Shown here: piece after piece, positions 1 through 19,627 of the stretch
Numbering within the stretch: position 1 is the stretch's first letter
Layout: every line of letters starts with the position of its first letter
From: a virus
DNA length: 28,536 bases
Direction: 5' to 3' (one strand)
Virus genome (UHGV): UHGV-1508137
Position numbers and translations under genes: made by a program
Notes under the pieces: generated by a model
Database searches by the model: none
Told to the model about the DNA's origin: nothing
Seen by the model: only the letters and a program-made list of their open reading frames with translations

Positions 1-46
1 AGGTTGCTCCGGGCTATGAAATAGAAAAATGAATCCGTTGAAGCCT
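1..46. other. host chromosomal flank (bacterial B arm of attB)
   Basis: Sequence left of the 15-bp core (ccgttgaagcct) matches the E. coli attB left arm as I recall it, not the phage P arm; phage P' arm follows the core. Confidence 0.6.
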
Positions 47-150
47 GCTTTTTTATACTAAGTTGGCATTATAAAAAAGCATTGCTTATCAATTTGTTGC
101 AACGAACAGGTCACTATCAGTCAAAATAAAATCATTATTTGATTTCAATT
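47..150 (+). other. attL: attL (B-O-P'): 15-bp common core gcttttttatactaa at 47-61 followed by P' arm with Int arm-type sites (aggtcactat, cagtcaaaat)
   Basis: Exact lambda core sequence read directly; P' arm sequence continues into the int 3' end as in lambda. Confidence 0.85.
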
Positions 151-1205
151 TTGTCCCACTCCCTGCCTCTGTCATCACGATACTGTGATGCCATGGTGTC
201 CGACTTATGCCCGAGAAGATGTTGAGCAAACTTATCGCTTATCTGCTTCTCATAGAGTCTTGCAGACAAACTGCGCAACTCGTGAAAGGTAGGCGGATCC
301 CCTTCGAAGGAAAGACCTGATGCTTTTCGTGCGCGCATAAAATACCTTGATACTGTGCCGGATGAAAGCGGTTCGCGACGAGTAGATGCAATTATGGTTT
401 CTCCGCCAAGAATCTCTTTGCATTTATCAAGTGTTTCCTTCATTGATATTCCGAGAGCATCAACATGCAATGCTGTTGGGATGGCAATTTTTACGCCTGT
501 TTTGCTTTGCTCGACATAAAGATATCCATCTACGATATCAGACCACTTCATTTCGCATAAATCACCAACTCGTTGCCCGGTAACAACAGCCAGTTCCATT
601 GCAAGTCTGAGCCAACATGGTGATGATTCTGCTGCTTGATAAATTTTCAGGTATTCGTCAGCCGTAAGTCTTGATCTCCTTACCTCTGATTTTGCTGCGC
701 GAGTGGCAGCGACAGGGTTTGTTGTTATATGGCCTTCAGCTATTGCCTCTCGGAATGCATCGCTCAGTGTTGATCTGATTAACTTGGCTGACGCCGCCTT
801 GCCCTCGTCTATGTATCCATTGAGCATTGCCGCAATTTCTTTTGTGGTGATGTCTTCAAGTGGAGCATCAGGCAGACCCCTCCTTATTGCTTTAATTTTG
901 CTCATGTAATTTATGAGTGTCTTCTGCTTGATTCCTCTGCTGGCCAGGATTTTTTCGTAGCGATCAAGCCATGAATGTAACGTAACGGAATTATCACTGT
1001 TGATTCTCGCTGTCAGAGGCTTGTGTTTGTGTCCTGAAAATAACTCAATGTTGGCCTGTATAGCTTCAGTGATTGCGATTCGCCTGTCTCGGCCTAATCC
1101 AAACTCTTTACCCGTCCTTGGGTCCCTGTAGCAGTAATATCCATTGTTTCTTATATAAAGGTTAGGGGGTAAATCCCGGCGCTCATGACTTCGCCTTCTT
1201 CCCAT
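135..1205 (-). CDS. int: integrase (tyrosine recombinase), 356 aa
   Basis: ORF translation matches lambda Int over its full length (MGRRRSHERRDLPPNLYIRNNGYYCYRDPRTGKEF...), same length as lambda Int. Confidence 0.97.
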   Translation of the reverse strand: MGRRRSHERRDLPPNLYIRNNGYYCYRDPRTGKEFGLGRDRRIAITEAIQANIELFSGHKHKPLTARINSDNSVTLHSWLDRYEKILASRGIKQKTLINYMSKIKAIRRGLPDAPLEDITTKEIAAMLNGYIDEGKAASAKLIRSTLSDAFREAIAEGHITTNPVAATRAAKSEVRRSRLTADEYLKIYQAAESSPCWLRLAMELAVVTGQRVGDLCEMKWSDIVDGYLYVEQSKTGVKIAIPTALHVDALGISMKETLDKCKEILGGETIIASTRREPLSSGTVSRYFMRARKASGLSFEGDPPTFHELRSLSARLYEKQISDKFAQHLLGHKSDTMASQYRDDRGREWDKIEIK

Positions 1206-1401
1206 TTCTGATCCTCTTCAAAAGGCTACCTGTTACTGGTCGATTTAAGTCAACCTTTACCGCTGATTCGTGGAACAGATACTCTCTTCCATCCTTAACC
1301 GGAGGAGGGAATATCCTGCACTCGCGTACCCATCGACGAACTGTTTCAAGGCTTCTTGGGCGTCGCTGGCGTGCGTTCCACTCCTGAAGTGTCAAGTACA
1401 T
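1183..1401 (-). CDS. xis: excisionase, 72 aa
   Basis: MYLTLQEWNARQRRPRSLETVRRWVRECRIFPPPVKDGREYLFHESAVKVDLNRPV... matches lambda Xis; overlaps int 3' end as in lambda. Confidence 0.95.
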   Translation of the reverse strand: MYLTLQEWNARQRRPRSLETVRRWVRECRIFPPPVKDGREYLFHESAVKVDLNRPVTGSLLKRIRNGKKAKS

Positions 1402-1430
1402 CGCAAAGTCTCCGCAATTACACGCAAGAA
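1395..1430 (-). promoter_or_regulatory. pI promoter region with CII-type TTGC-N6-TTGC motif (ttgcgtgtaattgc on minus strand) overlapping xis start
   Basis: Reverse complement of 1414-1427 reads ttgcgtgtaattgc immediately upstream of the xis ATG, as in lambda pI. Confidence 0.6.
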
Positions 1431-1499
1431 AAAACTGCCATCAGGCGGCTTGGTGTTCTTTCAGTTCTTCAATTCGAATATTGGTTACGTCTGCATGTG

Positions 1500-1700
1500 C
1501 TATCTGCGCCCACAGCATCCAGTGGTCATAGCAGTCGCTGATGTTCTCGGCTTCGATAACTCTGTTGAATGGTTCTCCATTCCATTCACCTGTGACTCGG
1601 AAGTGCATTTATCATCTCCATAAAACAAAACCCGCCGTAGCGAGTTCAGATAAAAGAAATCCTCGTCAGTGCGAGGATGCTGTTCATTGCTGCTATACAC
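1500..1700 (-). CDS. hypothetical small protein (66 codons, GTG start)
   Basis: Open frame only; start codon is GTG with a gagag motif upstream; no recognisable motif. Weak call. Confidence 0.3.
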   Translation of the reverse strand: MYSSNEQHPRTDEDFFYLNSLRRVLFYGDDKCTSESQVNGMENHSTELSKPRTSATAMTTGCCGRR

Positions 1701-1850
1701 TTTTTTGCTCTCAACGTAAGCGGTAGCCCATTCTGTTGGGTTGGTGCAGTTGCTTTTAGGAAATGCTATTTACCCCTTAAATGTCGGCTGAAAGAGCTAA
1801 AATCCATGCAAAAAATTTACGCAATTTTGTGTATTATTGTGCAGTAAGTA

Positions 1851-2453
1851 ATGAGCTATTTTCTGCGCAAAAAATGGATGGTAAATTTGTCCGGGTCAGG
1901 AAAAATTTTATGGGCGCTAAACATGAAAAAAGATTCGTATCCTTATTTGATTTGCATGACAGTTTCAGGGCTGATCTTTATTTTCCTTTTCTTCTGGTGG
2001 CGGGCAGATATCTACAGGGTCACGTTTCTTAATCAGAGTATATCCCACTATTACATTCTGTTTAGCATGGGAATAGCTTTTCTGTTATCTCTGTTTTGGG
2101 TTAAGAAGGGGATAGTAAAACAAAGCGGCTGGAAGAGTCTGTCAGCATACCTTAAGGTTTATGCAGGGATGTGCATATTTGCTGGATTTTTTCTGATTAT
2201 ACCCCTTACGACACTAACTTATTTTTTGCCTGGAGAGACATCGTCTTATGTTGCACCGTATCGGTATACTTCCGGTAGTTCAAAAAGTTGTTCTGGAGCT
2301 GAGGTGGATGACCCCGATCTACATGAGAATATTCGCATTTGCTATCCGTATGGCAATTATGAGTACGATAATATTATCTATGTTGAAAAGAAAATTAATA
2401 TATTAGGTGCGGTAGTGACATATGCACAGACCGCGCGTGATGATACTGAATGA
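1851..2453 (+). CDS. hypothetical integral membrane protein, 200 aa (alternative starts at 1878 or 1923), 3 predicted TM helices plus ~80-aa C-terminal soluble region
   Basis: ORF on the strand opposite to int/xis/exo; visibly AT-rich; hydrophobic segments LICMTVSGLIFIFLFFWW, YYILFSMGIAFLLSLFWV, VYAGMCIFAGFFLIIPLTTL. Confidence 0.6.
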   Translation: MSYFLRKKWMVNLSGSGKILWALNMKKDSYPYLICMTVSGLIFIFLFFWWRADIYRVTFLNQSISHYYILFSMGIAFLLSLFWVKKGIVKQSGWKSLSAYLKVYAGMCIFAGFFLIIPLTTLTYFLPGETSSYVAPYRYTSGSSKSCSGAEVDDPDLHENIRICYPYGNYEYDNIIYVEKKINILGAVVTYAQTARDDTE

Positions 2454-2487
2454 TATAGTATATAGCGGGCAAGTTTTAGTTAATTTA

Positions 2488-2525
2488 TCGAGGTAATATA
2501 ATTTACCTCGACTCGTTTGTTCTGG
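2488..2525 (+). terminator. hairpin (9-bp perfect stem tcgaggtaa/ttacctcga) followed by U-rich tract; putative terminator after the membrane-protein gene
   Basis: Inverted repeat read directly from sequence; downstream ctcgtttgttct. Confidence 0.4.
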
Positions 2526-2663
2526 TATTAATATTTCGCTTTACGACCGATTTTTATCTGATGATATCATGCGGTTTTCATATACTGACTTACTGTCTTT
2601 TCTCCGTTAGCGATTTTCTCCTGCTCAGCGATGATTTTATCTTTGGCTTCTAGTTAATTTCGC

Positions 2664-2885
2664 TCACTTCGAACCTCTCTGTTTACTGATAAGCTCCAGA
2701 TCTTCCTGGCAACTTGCACAAGTCCGACAACCCTGAACGACTAGGTGTCTTCGTTCATCTATCGGATCGCCACACTCACAACAATGAGTGGCAGATATAG
2801 CCTGGTGGTTCAGGCGGCGCATTTTTATTGCTGTGTTGCGCTGTAATTCTTCAATTTCTGATGCTGAATCAATGATGTCTGCCAT
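2664..2885 (-). CDS. TraR/DksA-family C4 zinc-finger protein, 73 aa (same family and size as the TraR-like Orf73 reported for lambda)
   Basis: C-x2-C-x17-C-x2-C motif (CCECGDPIDERRHLVVQGCRTCASC), size and position in early-left operon. Confidence 0.8.
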   Translation of the reverse strand: MADIIDSASEIEELQRNTAIKMRRLNHQAISATHCCECGDPIDERRHLVVQGCRTCASCQEDLELISKQRGSK

Positions 2886-2934
2886 CTTCCATTAATCCCT
2901 GAATTGTTGGTTAATACGCTTGAGGGTGAATGCG

Positions 2935-2961
2935 AATAATAAAAAAGGAGCCTGTAGCTCC
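2935..2961 (-). terminator. intrinsic terminator-like hairpin (ggagc/gctcc) followed on the minus strand by ttttttatt
   Basis: Inverted repeat plus U-tract read on the minus strand between two early-left ORFs. Confidence 0.45.
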
Positions 2962-2983
2962 CTGATGATTTTGCTTTTCATGT

Positions 2984-3265
2984 TCATCGTTCCTTAAAGA
3001 CGCCGTTTAACATGCCGATTGCCAGGCTTAAATGAGTCGGTGTGAATCCCATCAGCGTTACCGTTTCGCGGTGCTTCTTCAGTACGCTACGGCAAATGTC
3101 ATCGACGTTTTTATCCGGAAACTGCTGTCTGGCTTTTTTGATTTCAGAATTAGCCTGACGGGCAATGCTGCGAAGGGCGTTTTCCTGCTGAGGTGTCATT
3201 GAACAAGTCCCATGTCGGCAAGCATAAGCACACAGAATATGAAGCCCGCTGCCAGAAAAATGCAT
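2984..3265 (-). CDS. hypothetical early-left protein, 93 aa (possible alternative start giving 71 aa from MTPQQENALR)
   Basis: Open frame in operon orientation; in-frame stop immediately upstream of the first ATG; weak RBS for either start. Confidence 0.5.
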   Translation of the reverse strand: MHFSGSGLHILCAYACRHGTCSMTPQQENALRSIARQANSEIKKARQQFPDKNVDDICRSVLKKHRETVTLMGFTPTHLSLAIGMLNGVFKER

Positions 3266-3275
3266 TCAGTGGTTG

Positions 3276-3629
3276 TCATACCTGGTCTCTCTCATCTGCT
3301 TCTGCTTTCGCCACCATCATTTCCAGCTTTTGTGAAAGGGATGCGGCTAACGTGTGAAATTCTTCGTCTGTTTCTACTGGTATTGGCACAAACCTGACTC
3401 CAATTTGAGCGAGGCTATGTGCCATCTCGATACTCGTTCTTAACTCAACGGTAGATGCTTTGTGCATACAGCCCCCCCATTTATTATTTATCTCCTCAGC
3501 CAGCCGCTGTGCTTTCAGGGGATTTCGGATTACAGAAAGGCCGGGAAATACCCAGCCTCGCTTTGTAACGGAGTAGACGAAAGTGATTGCGCCTACCCGG
3601 ATATTATCGTGAGGATGCGTCATCGCCAT
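3276..3629 (-). CDS. small early protein, 117 aa; appears to be lambda orf60a and orf63 in one continuous frame (internal Met gives the 63-aa [10 protein letters not shown]... product)
   Basis: C-terminal 63 residues from an internal Met; N-terminal part abuts/overlaps the exo 3' end as lambda orf60a does. Confidence 0.6.
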
Positions 3630-14110: not shown

Positions 14111-14473
14111 GTGAATACCTACAGCATCACATTACCCTGGCCTCCGAGCAATAATCGCTATTACCGCCATAATCGCGGGCGCACGCACGTCAGCGCAGAG
14201 GGGCAGGCATACCGCGATAACGTCGCCCGAATCATTAAAAACGCAATGCTGGATATCGGCCTGGCTATGCCTGTGAAAATCCGCATTGAGTGCCACATGC
14301 CGGATCGCCGTCGCCGTGACCTGGATAATCTGCAAAAAGCCGCTTTTGACGCACTCACTAAAGCAGGTTTCTGGCTGGATGATGCTCAGGTCGTTGATTA
14401 CCGCGTTGTGAAGATGCCTGTTACCAAAGGTGGGAGGCTGGAACTGACCATCACCGAAATGGGGAATGAATGA
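14111..14473 (+). CDS. rusA: RusA Holliday-junction resolvase, 120 aa (GTG start)
   Basis: [100 protein letters not shown]... matches E. coli DLP12 RusA. Confidence 0.92.
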
Positions 14474-14610
14474 TGTTTGAGTTTAATATGGCAGAACGTC
14501 TTCGCCACCGCTGGGGGCGTCTGCGCTTATATCGTTTCCCCGGTTCTGTTTTGACCGATTACCGAATACTGAAGAATTACGCCAAAACCCTGACAGGAGC
14601 AGGAGTATGA
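14470..14610 (+). CDS. ylcG: YlcG-like small protein, 46 aa
   Basis: Hand translation [46 protein letters not shown]; ATGA coupled to rusA, as in DLP12. Confidence 0.7.
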
Positions 14611-14695
14611 AGTCAGAGATAACAATCAACTAATACTGTTTCGTTGATTTTTGCTTGTAATTGGCGTTCTGGTCTGATTTTTGTGGAGTAAGTTG

Positions 14696-15079
14696 ATGCG
14701 TGATATTCAGATGGTTCTTGAGCGTTGGGGAGCGTGGGCGGCTAATAATCATGAAGATGTGACCTGGTCGTCCATTGCCGCCGGTTTTAAGGGATTAATT
14801 ACTTCAAAAGTAAAATCTCGCCCGCAATGTTGTGACGATGACGCGATGATCATTTGCGGGTGCATGGCCCGTCTGAAAAAGAACAACAGCGATTTGCACG
14901 ATTTATTAGTAGATTATTATGTAGTCGGTATGACATTCATGTCACTGGCAGGTAAGCATTGCTGCTCTGATGGTTATATCGGGAAAAGGTTACAGAAGGC
15001 TGAGGGCATAATTGAAGGGATGTTAATGGCATTAGATATCCGGTTAGAGATGGATATCGTTGTTAATAACTCTAATTAA
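14696..15079 (+). CDS. Q: late antiterminator Q, phage 82 / DLP12 QuuD type, 127 aa
   Basis: [71 protein letters not shown]... ; Cys-rich zinc-binding region; unlike lambda Q. Confidence 0.85.
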
Positions 15080-15099
15080 TACGCCAATTATTTACTAAA

Positions 15100-15258
15100 A
15101 GTTATTAAAAATGGGGCGTTGAAACGCCCCCAAAAATAAAGGGTAATATATAACAGAAGGTTTGTATAGTTAGAAGCAAGGTTGTGCTTCTAAAGGAAGT
15201 GGCTTGAGGGAGCCACTTATATGTTGGGGAGGCAAAGCCTCCCACAACATATCTTTTA
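15100..15258. terminator. cluster of four stable hairpins (15114-15132, 15173-15192, 15200-15217, 15222-15251): 3' structures/terminator of the minus-strand porin gene and probable pR'/tR' region of Q
   Basis: Inverted repeats read directly; hairpin 1 has a U-tract on the minus strand; hairpin 4 is followed by tcttttag on the plus strand. Confidence 0.5.
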
Positions 15259-15267
15259 GTAATCAAA

Positions 15268-16350
15268 TTAGAACTGGTAAACCATACCTACAGCAACGAT
15301 ATCATCGGTAGCAACGCCAGATGCTTTCGTGAAATCGCTCTTATCAATCAGGTTGATTTTGTAGTCAACAAAAGTGGACATATTTTTGTTGAAGTAATAG
15401 GTTGCACCTACATCAACATATTCAACCAGGTCCTGATCACCCCAAACACCCAAGTCTTTTCCTTTAGAATGCAGGTAAGCAACGGATGGACGCAGGCCGA
15501 AGTCGAACTGATATTGTGCAACAGCTTCGAAGTTTTGTGCTTTGTTGGCAATATGGTTATTACCAAAAACAGTCATGTTCTGGGTTTCAGAATAGGTGGT
15601 GGCCAGATAGATGTTGTTCGCATCATATTTCAGACCAGCTGCCCATACTTCAGCATTTTGACCAGAAGCATTCAGACCGTTGTTACCGTAGATAACCTGA
15701 TTATTAGTGCGATCAGATTTAGCATAGGTTGCACCCACGCCGAATCCTTCATACTCATAAGTAGTTGAGAAACCGAAACCATCGCCATTAGCTTCAGTTA
15801 CTTCATTTCGGTCATTTTTGCCCTGATACTGAGCTGCAAAGTTCAGGCCATCAACCAGACCAAAGAAGTCGTTGTTACGATAAGTTGCAACACCTGTGGT
15901 GCGACCAGTCATGAATACATCTGTTTGGGTCCAGGTATCGCCACCGAATTCTGGCAGAACGTCAGTCCACGCACCGATGTCGTATGCTACACCGTAGTTA
16001 CGGCCGTAATCGATTGAGCCGTAGTCACCGAATTTCAGGCCTGCAAATGCAAGACGGGTTTTGTCTTTGGAGGAACCTTGAGATTCAGCGCGGTTGCCTT
16101 TGAATTCATATTCCCACTGACCGAAACCAGTCAGTTGATCGTTGATTTGGGTTTCACCTTTGAAGCCAAGACGGGCATAAGTAGTATCACCATCATCTGC
16201 ATCATTAGAGGAGAAGTAGTGCTTAGCATTAACTTTCCCGTACAGATCCAGCTTGTTACTGTCTTTATTATAAATTTCAGCTGCCTGAGCAGACATCGCC
16301 ATCAGTACTGATGCAGCTACAGCAGAAATTGCCACTGTTAATTTTTTCAT
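15268..16350 (-). CDS. nmpC: general outer-membrane porin (OmpC/OmpF/NmpC/Lc family), 360 aa with signal peptide
   Basis: [23 protein letters not shown] signal peptide, C-terminal ...VGMVYQF beta-barrel terminal Phe; synteny with DLP12 quuD-nmpC-essD. Symbol assigned by synteny only. Confidence 0.85.
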
Positions 16351-16938
16351 CGTGAGCCCTTTTTTTTGAACTATTATTAAAAAATGATGTCACTGCGCGA
16401 TAAATATTCATCTAATCAATGTGATTATTTCAAGATGTAAGTTTTAGTTTCTCATTTAATTTGTGAAGTAGATCTCTATTTTTATCTGAACTTTTTCTAT
16501 CGAAACCTATTTATGGCTCTTATTTGAACAAAAATAAACCTATTAGCTAATTTATATTAATGGCTGTTATTTATGGTGGTTCTATAATTCGGCAGTTTAA
16601 TTTAAATCAACTAAAAATAACCTCTGAAATTATTTATTGGTTATTTGTTGAGGTTTTCTTATGTATTTGTGGTGGTGTTTTGAACACTCGGTAGCATTCT
16701 CATAAATATCATTCAGTGGTTTACGTACGTAAAAAATTGGTTATGCTGTTAAGAGTGGTTACTTCGTCACACAGCTTAAACCCGCCGTCGAGCTGGTTTT
16801 TCCATTTTTTGAGTCTCGATATTAGCTGATAACTCAATACCTGAGTTATTCACTGACTCCGAGTCTGTTACGTTTCTGCTTTTTTGCGATACGTTGTATT
16901 CCCTCAATTTACACCCGCTTTGTCTGCGAGGTGGGGTT

Positions 16939-17154
16939 ATGAAATCCATGGATAAGTTAACAACGGGTGTCGCCTATGGCACCTCAGCAGGTAGTGCCGG
17001 TTACTGGTTTTTACAGCTGCTCGATAAAGTCACGCCCTCACAGTGGGCAGCAATAGGTGTGCTGGGTAGCCTGGTATTTGGCCTGCTGACGTACCTGACA
17101 AACCTTTATTTCAAGATTAAAGAAGATAAGCGCAAGGCTGCGAGAGGTGAATAA
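16939..17154 (+). CDS. S: holin, phage 21 S-type pinholin (dual start MKSM), 71 aa
   Basis: [71 protein letters not shown] resembles S21 pinholin / DLP12 EssD. Confidence 0.9.
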
Positions 17155-17651
17155 TGCCTCCATCATTACGAAAAGCCGTTGCTGCTGCTATTGGTGGCGG
17201 AGCAATTGCTATAGCATCAGTGTTAATTACTGGCCCAAGTGGTAACGATGGTCTGGAAGGTGTCAGCTACATACCATACAAAGATATTGTTGGTGTATGG
17301 ACTGTATGTCACGGGCATACAGGAAAAGACATCATGCTCGGTAAAACGTATACCAAAGCAGAATGCAAAGCCCTCCTGAATAAAGACCTTGCCACGGTCG
17401 CCAGACAAATTAACCCGTACATCAAAGTCGATATACCGGAAACAATGCGCGGCGCTCTTTACTCATTCGTTTACAACGTGGGTGCTGGCAATTTCAGAAC
17501 ATCGACGCTTCTTCGCAAAATAAACCAGGGCGATATCAAAGGCGCATGTGATCAGCTACGTCGCTGGACATATGCTGGCGGTAAGCAATGGAAAGGTCTC
17601 ATGACTCGTCGTGAGATTGAGCGTGAAATCTGTTTGTGGGGTCAGCAATGA
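17154..17651 (+). CDS. R: SAR endolysin (T4-lysozyme-like muramidase, phage 21 R type), 165 aa
   Basis: N-terminal signal-anchor-release segment [18 protein letters not shown]; E...D...T catalytic spacing ([17 protein letters not shown]); TAATG overlap with holin. Confidence 0.9.
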
Positions 17652-19160: not shown

Positions 19161-19571
19161 TTAGTGCGGAAATATTTGTGTAGTGTTCTGAATGTTCTCA
19201 GTAAAGAGTAATGAATTATCAAAGGTATAGTAATACCTTTTGTTTTCGTGGATATTTGTAATCCATCTGAAAACCCCTGCTGTAGCAAGATTTTTCCTGT
19301 ATTCGTAAAATGATAACTCTCCTGATTTGAATCCTTTTAAGGTGGCTTCTATAAGGCATTTATTTTTTGAAAATCTTACATTTACAACCTTACCCTGTCC
19401 TTTTATTAAAACCGTATTATCGTTTTCAAGAACAAGATGAATATTCTCTGTAGCTAAATAGTAAATGTAATGTGAGACATTGTGACGTTTTAGTTCAGAA
19501 TAAAACCAGTGATAGTTTAAATTATTTCGCACTTTATCGAATATTTGTTTAAAAATGGCAACCTGAGCCAT
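19161..19571 (-). CDS. hypothetical protein, 136 aa from Met-6 (141 from first ATG); resembles DLP12 YbcV (DUF1398) by size and context
   Basis: AT-rich ORF; GGAAGG RBS precedes the second ATG; family assignment from memory only. Confidence 0.6.
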
Positions 19572-19627
19572 TGTAGTACCTTCCATGTGATATGAGGGGC
19601 GTAGTCTGCACGATTATCTAAATTGCT

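Follow-up and report, generated by a model that had tools for sequence, protein, structure and literature searches.

The window analysed here, the whole 28,536-nucleotide (nt) stretch of viral DNA named UHGV virus genome UHGV-1508137 (one strand, 5' to 3'), carries on its minus strand an intact gene for a 360-amino-acid (aa) porin of the NmpC/Lc/OmpD type, located between the gene of the antiterminator Q and the holin gene S. Judged by its sequence, this gene is the uninterrupted allele of nmpC of the DLP12 prophage of Escherichia coli K-12, and it is directly followed by a block of hairpins that we equate with the locus of the small RNA (sRNA) IpeX and with the porin terminator. An earlier note on this DNA had proposed antisense reading of the porin by Q-antiterminated late transcripts, which would couple its silencing to lytic induction. 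However, the only element of the window resembling the late promoter pR' is found at 16720-16754, between the porin and the holin. The porin/IpeX cassette (approximately 15080-16718) therefore probably lies between Q and pR', and late transcripts would not cross the porin. The features of this region, in window positions, are as follows.

14696-15079, plus strand: gene of the antiterminator Q, QuuD type, Q21/Q933W family (PF06530, E 4e-53).
15104-15267, minus strand: 3' untranslated region (UTR) of the porin, equated with the IpeX sRNA locus from its fold and its 97% identity to the K-12 spacer.
15219-15252, 15197-15218, 15170-15193 and 15113-15130, minus strand: four hairpins predicted by folding.
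15113-15130 with the T-run 15107-15111, minus strand: intrinsic terminator hairpin predicted by a consensus terminator scan.
15268-16350, minus strand: intact gene of a 360-aa NmpC/Lc/OmpD-type general porin, assigned from its open reading frame (ORF), family profiles and structure alignments.
16282-16350, minus strand: predicted porin signal peptide (aa 1-23), a standard-type N-terminus.
16351-16549, minus strand: porin promoter region and 5' UTR, homologous to K-12 PnmpC.
About 16404-16409, minus strand: possible -10 element GAATAT with a G start near 16396-16398, putative, read from the sequence.
16462-16477, minus strand: CRP-like site matching at 8 of 10 positions, read from the sequence.
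16500-16718, no strand assigned: variable AT-rich spacer between the divergent promoters (26.2% GC over 16400-16700).
16720-16754, plus strand: late promoter pR' homologue, assigned by homology to the pR' of Shiga toxin (Stx) phages.
16720-16725, 16742-16747 and 16754, plus strand: pR' elements, namely -35 TTTACG, a 16-nt spacer, -10 TATGCT and the predicted transcription start site (TSS) A16754.
16755-16938, plus strand: 185-nt leader of the late operon, in which +2 to +17 form a small hairpin, from folding and homology.
About 16778-16812, plus strand: hairpin and T-run, candidate tR', kept in K-12, Stx2, phiP27 and SfII.
16939-17154, plus strand: gene of an S21-type (EssD) holin with the dual start MKSM, which opens the late operon (PF04971, E 3.5e-35).

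The position of pR' follows from homology to phages in which this promoter is annotated or mapped. A sensitive search with the porin-holin spacer found that 16719-16801 is homologous to the segment following Q in hundreds of Stx-phage records, in phiP27 and in SfII, with identities of 76% to Stx2 phage 06-3462 (segment 701-782), 90% to phiP27 and 88% to SfII. In the annotation of 06-3462, pR' is given as TTTACG-N16-TATCAT (segment 702-729), followed by a "possible terminator". The pR' TSS of the Sakai Stx phages was mapped by differential RNA sequencing (dRNA-seq) to 258 nt upstream of the 3' end of tR' in the StxS study (PMC7547250). In 06-3462, counting from a start at A734-A736, just after TATCAT, the T-run 988-993, which belongs to the second annotated terminator, comes 258 nt later, and the annotated pR' therefore agrees with the dRNA-seq mapping. 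The -10 element keeps the form TATNNT in four phage types (TATGCT in the window; TATCAT, TATCCT and TATCGT in the relatives), and the initial transcribed sequence TAAGAGTGGTTAC is invariant in all four and occurs exactly once in the window. Additionally, across seven copies of the module the pR' cassette is 0.92-0.98 invariant and forms a conservation island among porin-bearing phages. The limits of homology narrow the position further: phages with a related Q and other cargo diverge at 15055, whereas phages that have the window-type holin and lack the porin are homologous from approximately 16923 only, and pR' must therefore lie inside the porin-associated block. An active reporter of the DLP12 lysis operon held only the porin-holin spacer, from 16278 into rrrD (PMC7918800).

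The porin gene itself is intact. Its reading frame at 15268-16350 starts with ATG and continues uninterrupted for 360 aa. The protein covers the entire Pfam profile Porin_1 (PF00267; profile positions 1-337 of 337, E 3.6e-152, 507 bits with a cut-off of 23.7) and passes the NCBIfam OmpC-subfamily model (515 bits, cut-off 484); the NCBIfam equivalog cut-offs for PhoE (504.7 < 599) and OmpF (480.3 < 583) are not reached. Residues 24-360 align with the entire solved chains of the 16-strand trimeric porins OmpK37, OmpC, PhoE and OmpF, with E values from 1e-135 to 1e-115, and the mature N-terminus at residue 24, directly after the 23-aa signal, coincides with residue 1 of the crystallised porin chains. 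The protein also carries the L3 motif PEFGGD and ends in VYQF. By family profile, by fold alignment, and by its signal, L3 and C-terminal features, it is a general bacterial porin (Porin_1; OmpC/OmpF/PhoE type), and its family membership predicts a trimeric outer-membrane diffusion pore. The complete, signal-bearing porin of the OmpC/NmpC/Lc family that the earlier note had read on the minus strand, in an unbroken ORF, is thereby borne out.

For the comparison with K-12, we used the DLP12 region of strain MG1655 and aligned NmpC with the insertion sequence IS5 removed. The quuD-nmpC spacer of K-12 and window 15070-15290 share 97% identity (the mean of 222 alignment columns), and the nmpC-essD spacer is 95% identical to window 16330-16960. 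The two porins are identical at 330 of 360 aa: residues 1-148 are the same throughout, and the differences cluster in three short, loop-sized patches at approximately residues 181-187, 219-231 and 268-272. The porin coding sequence (CDS) is only about 88% identical to K-12 at the DNA level, which is below its non-coding flanks. Among the seven copies, a comparison of 15268-15800 with 15800-16350 shows the CDS to be a mosaic with a near-invariant 5' half and a 3' half that is the most variable part of the whole module, the usual pattern of porin surface loops. The earlier note had placed the gene where nmpC sits in DLP12, between Q and the holin on the opposite strand, and had named the alignment to NmpC as a check; both the flanks and the protein agree with that placement, with Q at 14696-15079 and the holin at 16939-17154, each on the plus strand.

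Directly 3' of the porin stop codon and on the porin strand, the four hairpins fold with a minimum free energy of -67.5 kcal/mol (z = -8.9), and none of 200 shuffled sequences folds as well. The "three or four" stable hairpins of the earlier note are thus four, the last of them a terminator. Between the stop codon of the porin and the T-run of the terminator lie 161 nt. In its passage on IpeX, a review describes a 167-nt DLP12 sRNA that is made from the porin promoter within the porin transcript and then processed (PMC12197685), and the passages on its targets in three papers report that it represses OmpC and OmpF (PMC12197685; PMC5069750; PMC3333887). We read the block as IpeX because the 161 nt to the T-run are close to the published 167 nt, with a terminator at the end, and because the segment is 97% identical to that of K-12; the K-12 DLP12 record examined lists no ipeX feature. 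In K-12 this segment is cut off by IS5 from the promoter and from most of nmpC, whereas the window transcript would be continuous, and IpeX should therefore be co-expressed with the porin. By analogy with DLP12, the window copy would likewise be processed from the porin messenger RNA (mRNA) and repress OmpC and OmpF.

A perfect 10-bp inverted repeat, 15092-15101 (TTACTAAAAG) and 15253-15262 (CTTTTAGTAA), encloses the four-hairpin block, and pairing of its arms is predicted for each strand. On the porin strand its 3' arm is beyond the terminator T-run, and the repeat would therefore matter only for read-through transcripts or as DNA. The K-12 version of the repeat is imperfect.

Upstream of the porin, the earlier note had described about 540 bp of very AT-rich DNA, and the 543 bp of 16351-16893 do have a GC content of 31.9%, with 27.7% in the porin-proximal 368 bp (16351-16718) and 48.7% in the window as a whole. 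The K-12 199-bp PnmpC region is about 93% identical to its counterpart in the window. Among the seven copies, 16350-16499 is 0.88-0.96 invariant and forms a conservation island, whereas no other non-coding part of the module is conserved less than 16500-16718 (0.70-0.84 invariant). In K-12, the nmpC TSS was mapped to a G by rapid amplification of cDNA ends (5' RACE), deletion of -199 to -1 removes promoter activity, and PnmpC is described as activated by Crp and repressed by OmpR, IHF and MprA; moreover, the only detectable read-through ins5A mRNA of K-12 comes from PnmpC (PMC11677980). In the uropathogenic E. coli (UPEC) strain CFT073, two nmpC copies show higher RNA and protein levels at 37 °C than at 23 °C (PMC12890032), and the same paper cites a report of high NmpC expression in strain AW1.7. 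The claim that the window porin could be expressed is therefore plausible, PnmpC being active in K-12 and nmpC mRNA and protein being found in CFT073 (PMC11677980, PMC12890032).

On the other side of the spacer, the predicted TSS A16754 lies 185 nt before the holin ATG. In the predicted fold of this late leader, the ribosome-binding site of the holin is sequestered in a 3' hairpin; homology to SfII reaches as far as this site, whereas homology to the Stx leader stops after the first hairpin. The window and phage Turner have a G-to-T change at 16793 (CGGG to CTGG), with which the first 62 nt fold at -8.4 instead of -14.1 kcal/mol, and the G is retained in K-12, 434B, ev017, 4C10, mEp332 and PhiR70_1. 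With the T, basal read-through into the lysis genes might be higher. Among the seven copies, conservation within the leader is lowest at 16850-16899.

Several side observations concern this promoter and leader. In 06-3462, the first hairpin and its 7-T run (segment 760-786), the feature annotated "possible terminator", follow the pR' start by about 25-50 nt; the published full-length StxS has 258 nt, and this hairpin is therefore evidently read through. Compared with K-12 DLP12, 16 nt are inserted in the window at approximately 16877-16892, reading TGCTTTTTTGCGATAC on the plus strand. The "-121 to +650" fragment of the DLP12 lysis operon (PMC7918800) has its forward primer at 16278-16297, inside the porin signal-peptide codons. 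Taken literally, the numbering of that study puts +1 near 16399, by the porin TSS region and not at the pR' homologue; of this fragment, only its span over the porin-holin spacer was used here. The printed reverse primer has no match in K-12 or the window within 2-3 mismatches.

Whether any rightward transcription crosses the porin depends on where it starts. In the canonical layout of lambda and the Stx phages (10.1101/651190; PMC7547250), pR' directly follows Q, and with this layout, which the earlier note had assumed, late antisense transcripts would silence the porin on induction. The plus strand of 15080-15267 also folds well (z -7.9) and could be read as a cluster of tR' hairpins. However, no pR' directly follows Q in the window: the sole homologue of the pR' mapped for this Q family is at 16720-16754, 1.64 kb away, with porin and IpeX in between, and a consensus scan of 15080-15267 on the plus strand found no promoter-like site. 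The same segment is 97% identical to the DLP12 spacer equated with IpeX, and SfII and phiP27 likewise bear cargo between Q and the pR' cassette. In K-12, a strong terminator inserted into the quuD-nmpC spacer had no effect (PMC11677980), and therefore no rightward transcription into nmpC is detectable in uninduced K-12. We consider a late promoter directly after Q very improbable. Read-through from the early promoter pR is a different matter, since N-antiterminated transcripts might pass the Q stop codon and the hairpins after induction. The window has the lambda-type early order cI-cro-cII-O-P-ren-nin-Q, none of the four plus-strand hairpins leads into a convincing T-run (CTTTTAG after 15252 comes closest), and, by lambda biology, an antiterminated polymerase would be expected to pass them. 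On the other hand, no N gene and no nut sites were recognised in the window, and early transcription is much weaker than transcription driven from pR'; its effect on the porin per lytic cycle would be minor. Early read-through past Q is the only plausible source of antisense RNA, and a weaker one; antisense transcription of the porin by this route is a real possibility, though somewhat short of an even one.

The arrangement that we prefer, with an expressed porin/IpeX cassette upstream of pR', has to face several points that count against it. The pR' -10 element TATGCT matches the consensus at 4 of 6 positions, and the consensus promoter and terminator scan flagged neither the PnmpC nor the pR' homologue. 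Q-responsiveness of the promoter at 16720-16754 is expected from homology, the Q-binding and sigma-dependent pause elements being undefined for this Q type. The role of 16778-16812 as tR' is uncertain, as its Stx homologue is read through and the window copy is weakened. Phage 1H12 has a Q that is 84% identical with a different C-terminus, and it is without the TAAGAGTGGTTAC cassette; the layout is therefore not universal. The exact coordinates of IpeX are those of a review. Likewise, PnmpC activity, IpeX function and expression are carried over by analogy to the window copy. The nmpC gene of E. coli B, an intact allele, is reportedly called "quiescent" in the title of a 1998 paper by Prilipov, which also speaks for the rival explanation that the window porin is intact yet effectively silent cargo, for example through silencing by H-NS. 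The upstream region is indeed very AT-rich (26-28% GC), and the thermoregulation of nmpC (37 °C above 23 °C) would be typical of H-NS targets. However, PnmpC-derived ins5A read-through mRNA is detectable in K-12 (PMC11677980), and expression at the protein level in CFT073 and high NmpC in AW1.7 have been described (PMC12890032). Additionally, about 46% of genomes retain an intact gene whose variation centres on the loops, which argues for selection on an exposed, expressed protein, and silence of the porin appears unlikely. For the hairpin block, the alternative is a stack of terminators that insulates the convergent Q and porin transcripts and yields no functional sRNA from the window copy. 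An Rfam scan of 14400-17300 (E <= 1) matched no family to the hairpin block or the late leader, and among the seven copies the four hairpins show 0 compensatory pairs and a few broken terminal pairs, the copies being too similar for this count to inform. Moreover, the last hairpin is a textbook minus-strand terminator, and the absence of quuD read-through in K-12 has been ascribed by the authors of PMC11677980 to intrinsic terminators at this place. Against a purely terminating role stand the match of 97% to the DLP12 spacer, to which secondary sources assign an IpeX processed from the porin transcript, and the quantification of ipeX RNA in clinical isolates (PMC7177473). Terminator and sRNA roles can coexist, and we regard a block without a functional sRNA as quite unlikely.

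Taken together, the region is quite likely an autonomous lysogenic-conversion cassette, in which a porin with its own promoter and an IpeX/terminator segment has been inserted between Q and pR'. Four parts of this picture were established in the present analysis: the identity and intactness of the gene, the homology of its flanks to DLP12, its prevalence and the position of the pR' homologue. The activity and regulation of PnmpC, the function of IpeX, the expression of intact copies and the TSS of the Stx-phage pR' are taken from the literature. We propose that host RNA polymerase would transcribe the porin leftwards from its own sigma-70 promoter, which is AT-rich and would lie within approximately 200 bp of the ATG, and that, by homology, this promoter would be under PnmpC-type control, with activation by Crp and repression by OmpR and IHF. 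The transcript would converge on Q and end at the terminator just before the Q stop codon. The porin would be exported and assembled as an additional trimeric pore in the outer membrane of the lysogen, and its 3' UTR would be processed to IpeX, which in turn would lower the synthesis of OmpC and OmpF. The resulting shift in the porin set may change outer-membrane permeability and the display of phage and colicin receptors. After induction, Q would act at pR' to the right of the cassette, and late transcripts would run rightwards over S-R-Rz and the head genes and would not pass through the porin. Porin transcription from PnmpC and Q action at pR' are predicted from homology, and the intermediate steps come from the DLP12 literature. 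If the cassette lies upstream of pR', the porin and IpeX should belong to the lysogenic phase and answer to host signals, in contrast to Shiga toxin, which is coupled to induction.

The order of Q and the pR' cassette is collinear in Stx2 phage 06-3462, phiP27, SfII and the window, and the cargo between them differs, as follows.

Stx2 phage 06-3462: Q and cassette adjacent, nothing between.
phiP27 (segment 539-1768), plus strand: gene of a GIY-YIG nuclease between Q and cassette.
SfII (segment 1782-3396), minus strand: two hypothetical genes between Q and cassette.
Window, minus strand: porin and IpeX between Q and cassette.

We lean, with some reserve, towards the view that the gap between Q and pR' in phages of the QuuD/Q933W type is a recurrent cargo slot for conversion genes expressed in the lysogen, transcriptionally insulated from the late operon. 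If so, slot cargo would run purely in the lysogen, unlike stx-type cargo downstream of pR', which is co-induced with lysis, and the IpeX hairpin stack would be both an sRNA and an insulator between the convergent Q and porin transcripts. Phage 1H12 was tried and rejected as a guide to pR', as it has no block in common with the window beyond Q position 15055 and no cassette. In its own sequence (NC_049947.1, 40900-45300), Q is followed by a hairpin with an 8-T run, a minus-strand lipocalin gene blc, two plus-strand genes and the holin.

Knowledge of prophage NmpC/Lc porins and of IpeX goes back decades, and the locus is among the commonest accessory loci of E. coli. Specifically, of 5426 complete E. 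coli genomes, 2394 carry the 2.6-kb Q-porin-holin module at a coverage of at least 80%, as do 36 phage records, with identities of 99.6% in phage ev099 and 100% in strain SCU-104. A full-length homologue of the porin CDS occurs in 2501 of the 5426 genomes (about 46%), and at least 1000 public contigs bear the exact 360-aa sequence. When the ranked genomes were sampled at even intervals, the full-length copies were annotated as intact "porin OmpC" or "porin", and the truncated matches (93-95% coverage) were K-12-lineage strains. An intact copy, which the earlier note had singled out as noteworthy, is thus the norm, and the nmpC split by IS5 in K-12 and phage 434B is the exception. The names vary: the exact protein appears as "porin OmpD", "porin OmpC" or, in one source, "outer membrane porin protein LC", and in RefSeq the identical DNA of SCU-104 is the intact CDS WP_000737263.1, "porin OmpC". 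This last name derives from the subfamily-level model, which is not an equivalog. An orthologue of the chromosomal OmpC, as the RefSeq name would suggest, was considered and rejected, since the gene sits inside a prophage between Q and S and the name rests on that model. The label "ompC" on prophage porins can mislead analyses of porin loss and antibiotic permeability, roughly half of genomes carrying at least one such extra prophage porin. As a discovery the locus matters little; the layout of Q, cargo and pR', which recurs in relatives, is a modestly interesting by-product.

The neighbouring genes fit an ordinary lambda-like prophage, in which int, exo-bet-gam, cI-cro-cII, O-P-ren, nin, Q, porin, S-R-Rz and Nu1-A-W-B can be read in the window. 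The order Q (plus), porin (minus), holin (plus) is that of DLP12 and of the 36 phage records. The window Q is 100% identical to K-12 QuuD and 46% identical to the Q of phiP27, and it matches the solved Q21 only distantly (E 7e-7). A transfer of the Q21 Q-binding element (QBE) and sigma-dependent pause element (SDPE) onto the window was therefore dropped. The holin starts at ATG 16939 (MKSMDK..., 71 aa), the start also given by RefSeq and by the annotation of phage 434B, and the RefSeq essD in the identical DNA of SCU-104 has the coordinates 16939-17154. The TTG at 16894, from which a mechanical ORF list had begun an 86-aa holin, was rejected as a start. Of the bounds that the earlier note had set, 16893 stems from this TTG-extended ORF, and 15100 falls just inside the terminator tail. 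Lysozyme and the Rz spanin follow the holin on the plus strand. The best overall match of the whole window is phage mEp332. Strain SCU-104 is 100% identical over 14600-17200, yet its nin and post-Rz regions are unlike those of the window. After Rz, the window has a plus-strand ORF with a KilA-N domain (PF04383, 18290-18811), where K-12, 434B and SCU-104 have a minus-strand bor/iss lipoprotein gene; a 141-aa minus-strand ORF at 19161-19586 comes next.

Among known systems, the chromosomal OmpC, OmpF and PhoE and the Klebsiella OmpK37 share the fold family of the window porin, its L3 motif PEFGGD and its C-terminal Phe, with full-length alignments at E 1e-120 to 1e-135; in contrast to the chromosomal three, the window porin is a prophage-borne paralogue that is not at the ompC locus. 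The closest counterpart is nmpC in DLP12 (qsr'), a cryptic prophage of K-12, with which it shares the slot quuD - porin (minus) - essD, an identical Q and a pR' cassette upstream of the holin. The K-12 copy is split by IS5 after codon 346, whereas the window copy is unbroken, and the window differs further in the 16-nt insertion of the late leader and the G-to-T change of the leader hairpin. Phage PA-2 Lc (protein 2) is said to be the classical case of lysogenic conversion, with a porin between Q and the lysis genes, and is attributed to Schnaitman in 1975 and Blasband in 1986. By description, both the window porin and Lc are prophage OmpC-like porins between Q and the lysis genes. In a passage on PA-2, Lc is described as a prophage OmpC-like porin whose expression goes with reduced OmpC and OmpF (PMC8065619). 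Finally, the Stx phages with a 144-aa Q (933W/Sakai) and the StxS-type cassette of pR' and leader have in common with the window TTTACG-N16-TATNNT, TAAGAGTGGTTAC and a hairpin with T-run, and their Q proteins, of the same family PF06530, are 77% identical to that of the window. Their cassette borders on or overlaps the 3' end of Q, and a 258-nt leader (StxS), transfer RNAs (tRNAs) and stx come after it; in the window, by contrast, 1.64 kb separate pR' from the Q stop codon upstream of it, and a 185-nt leader and the holin come next.

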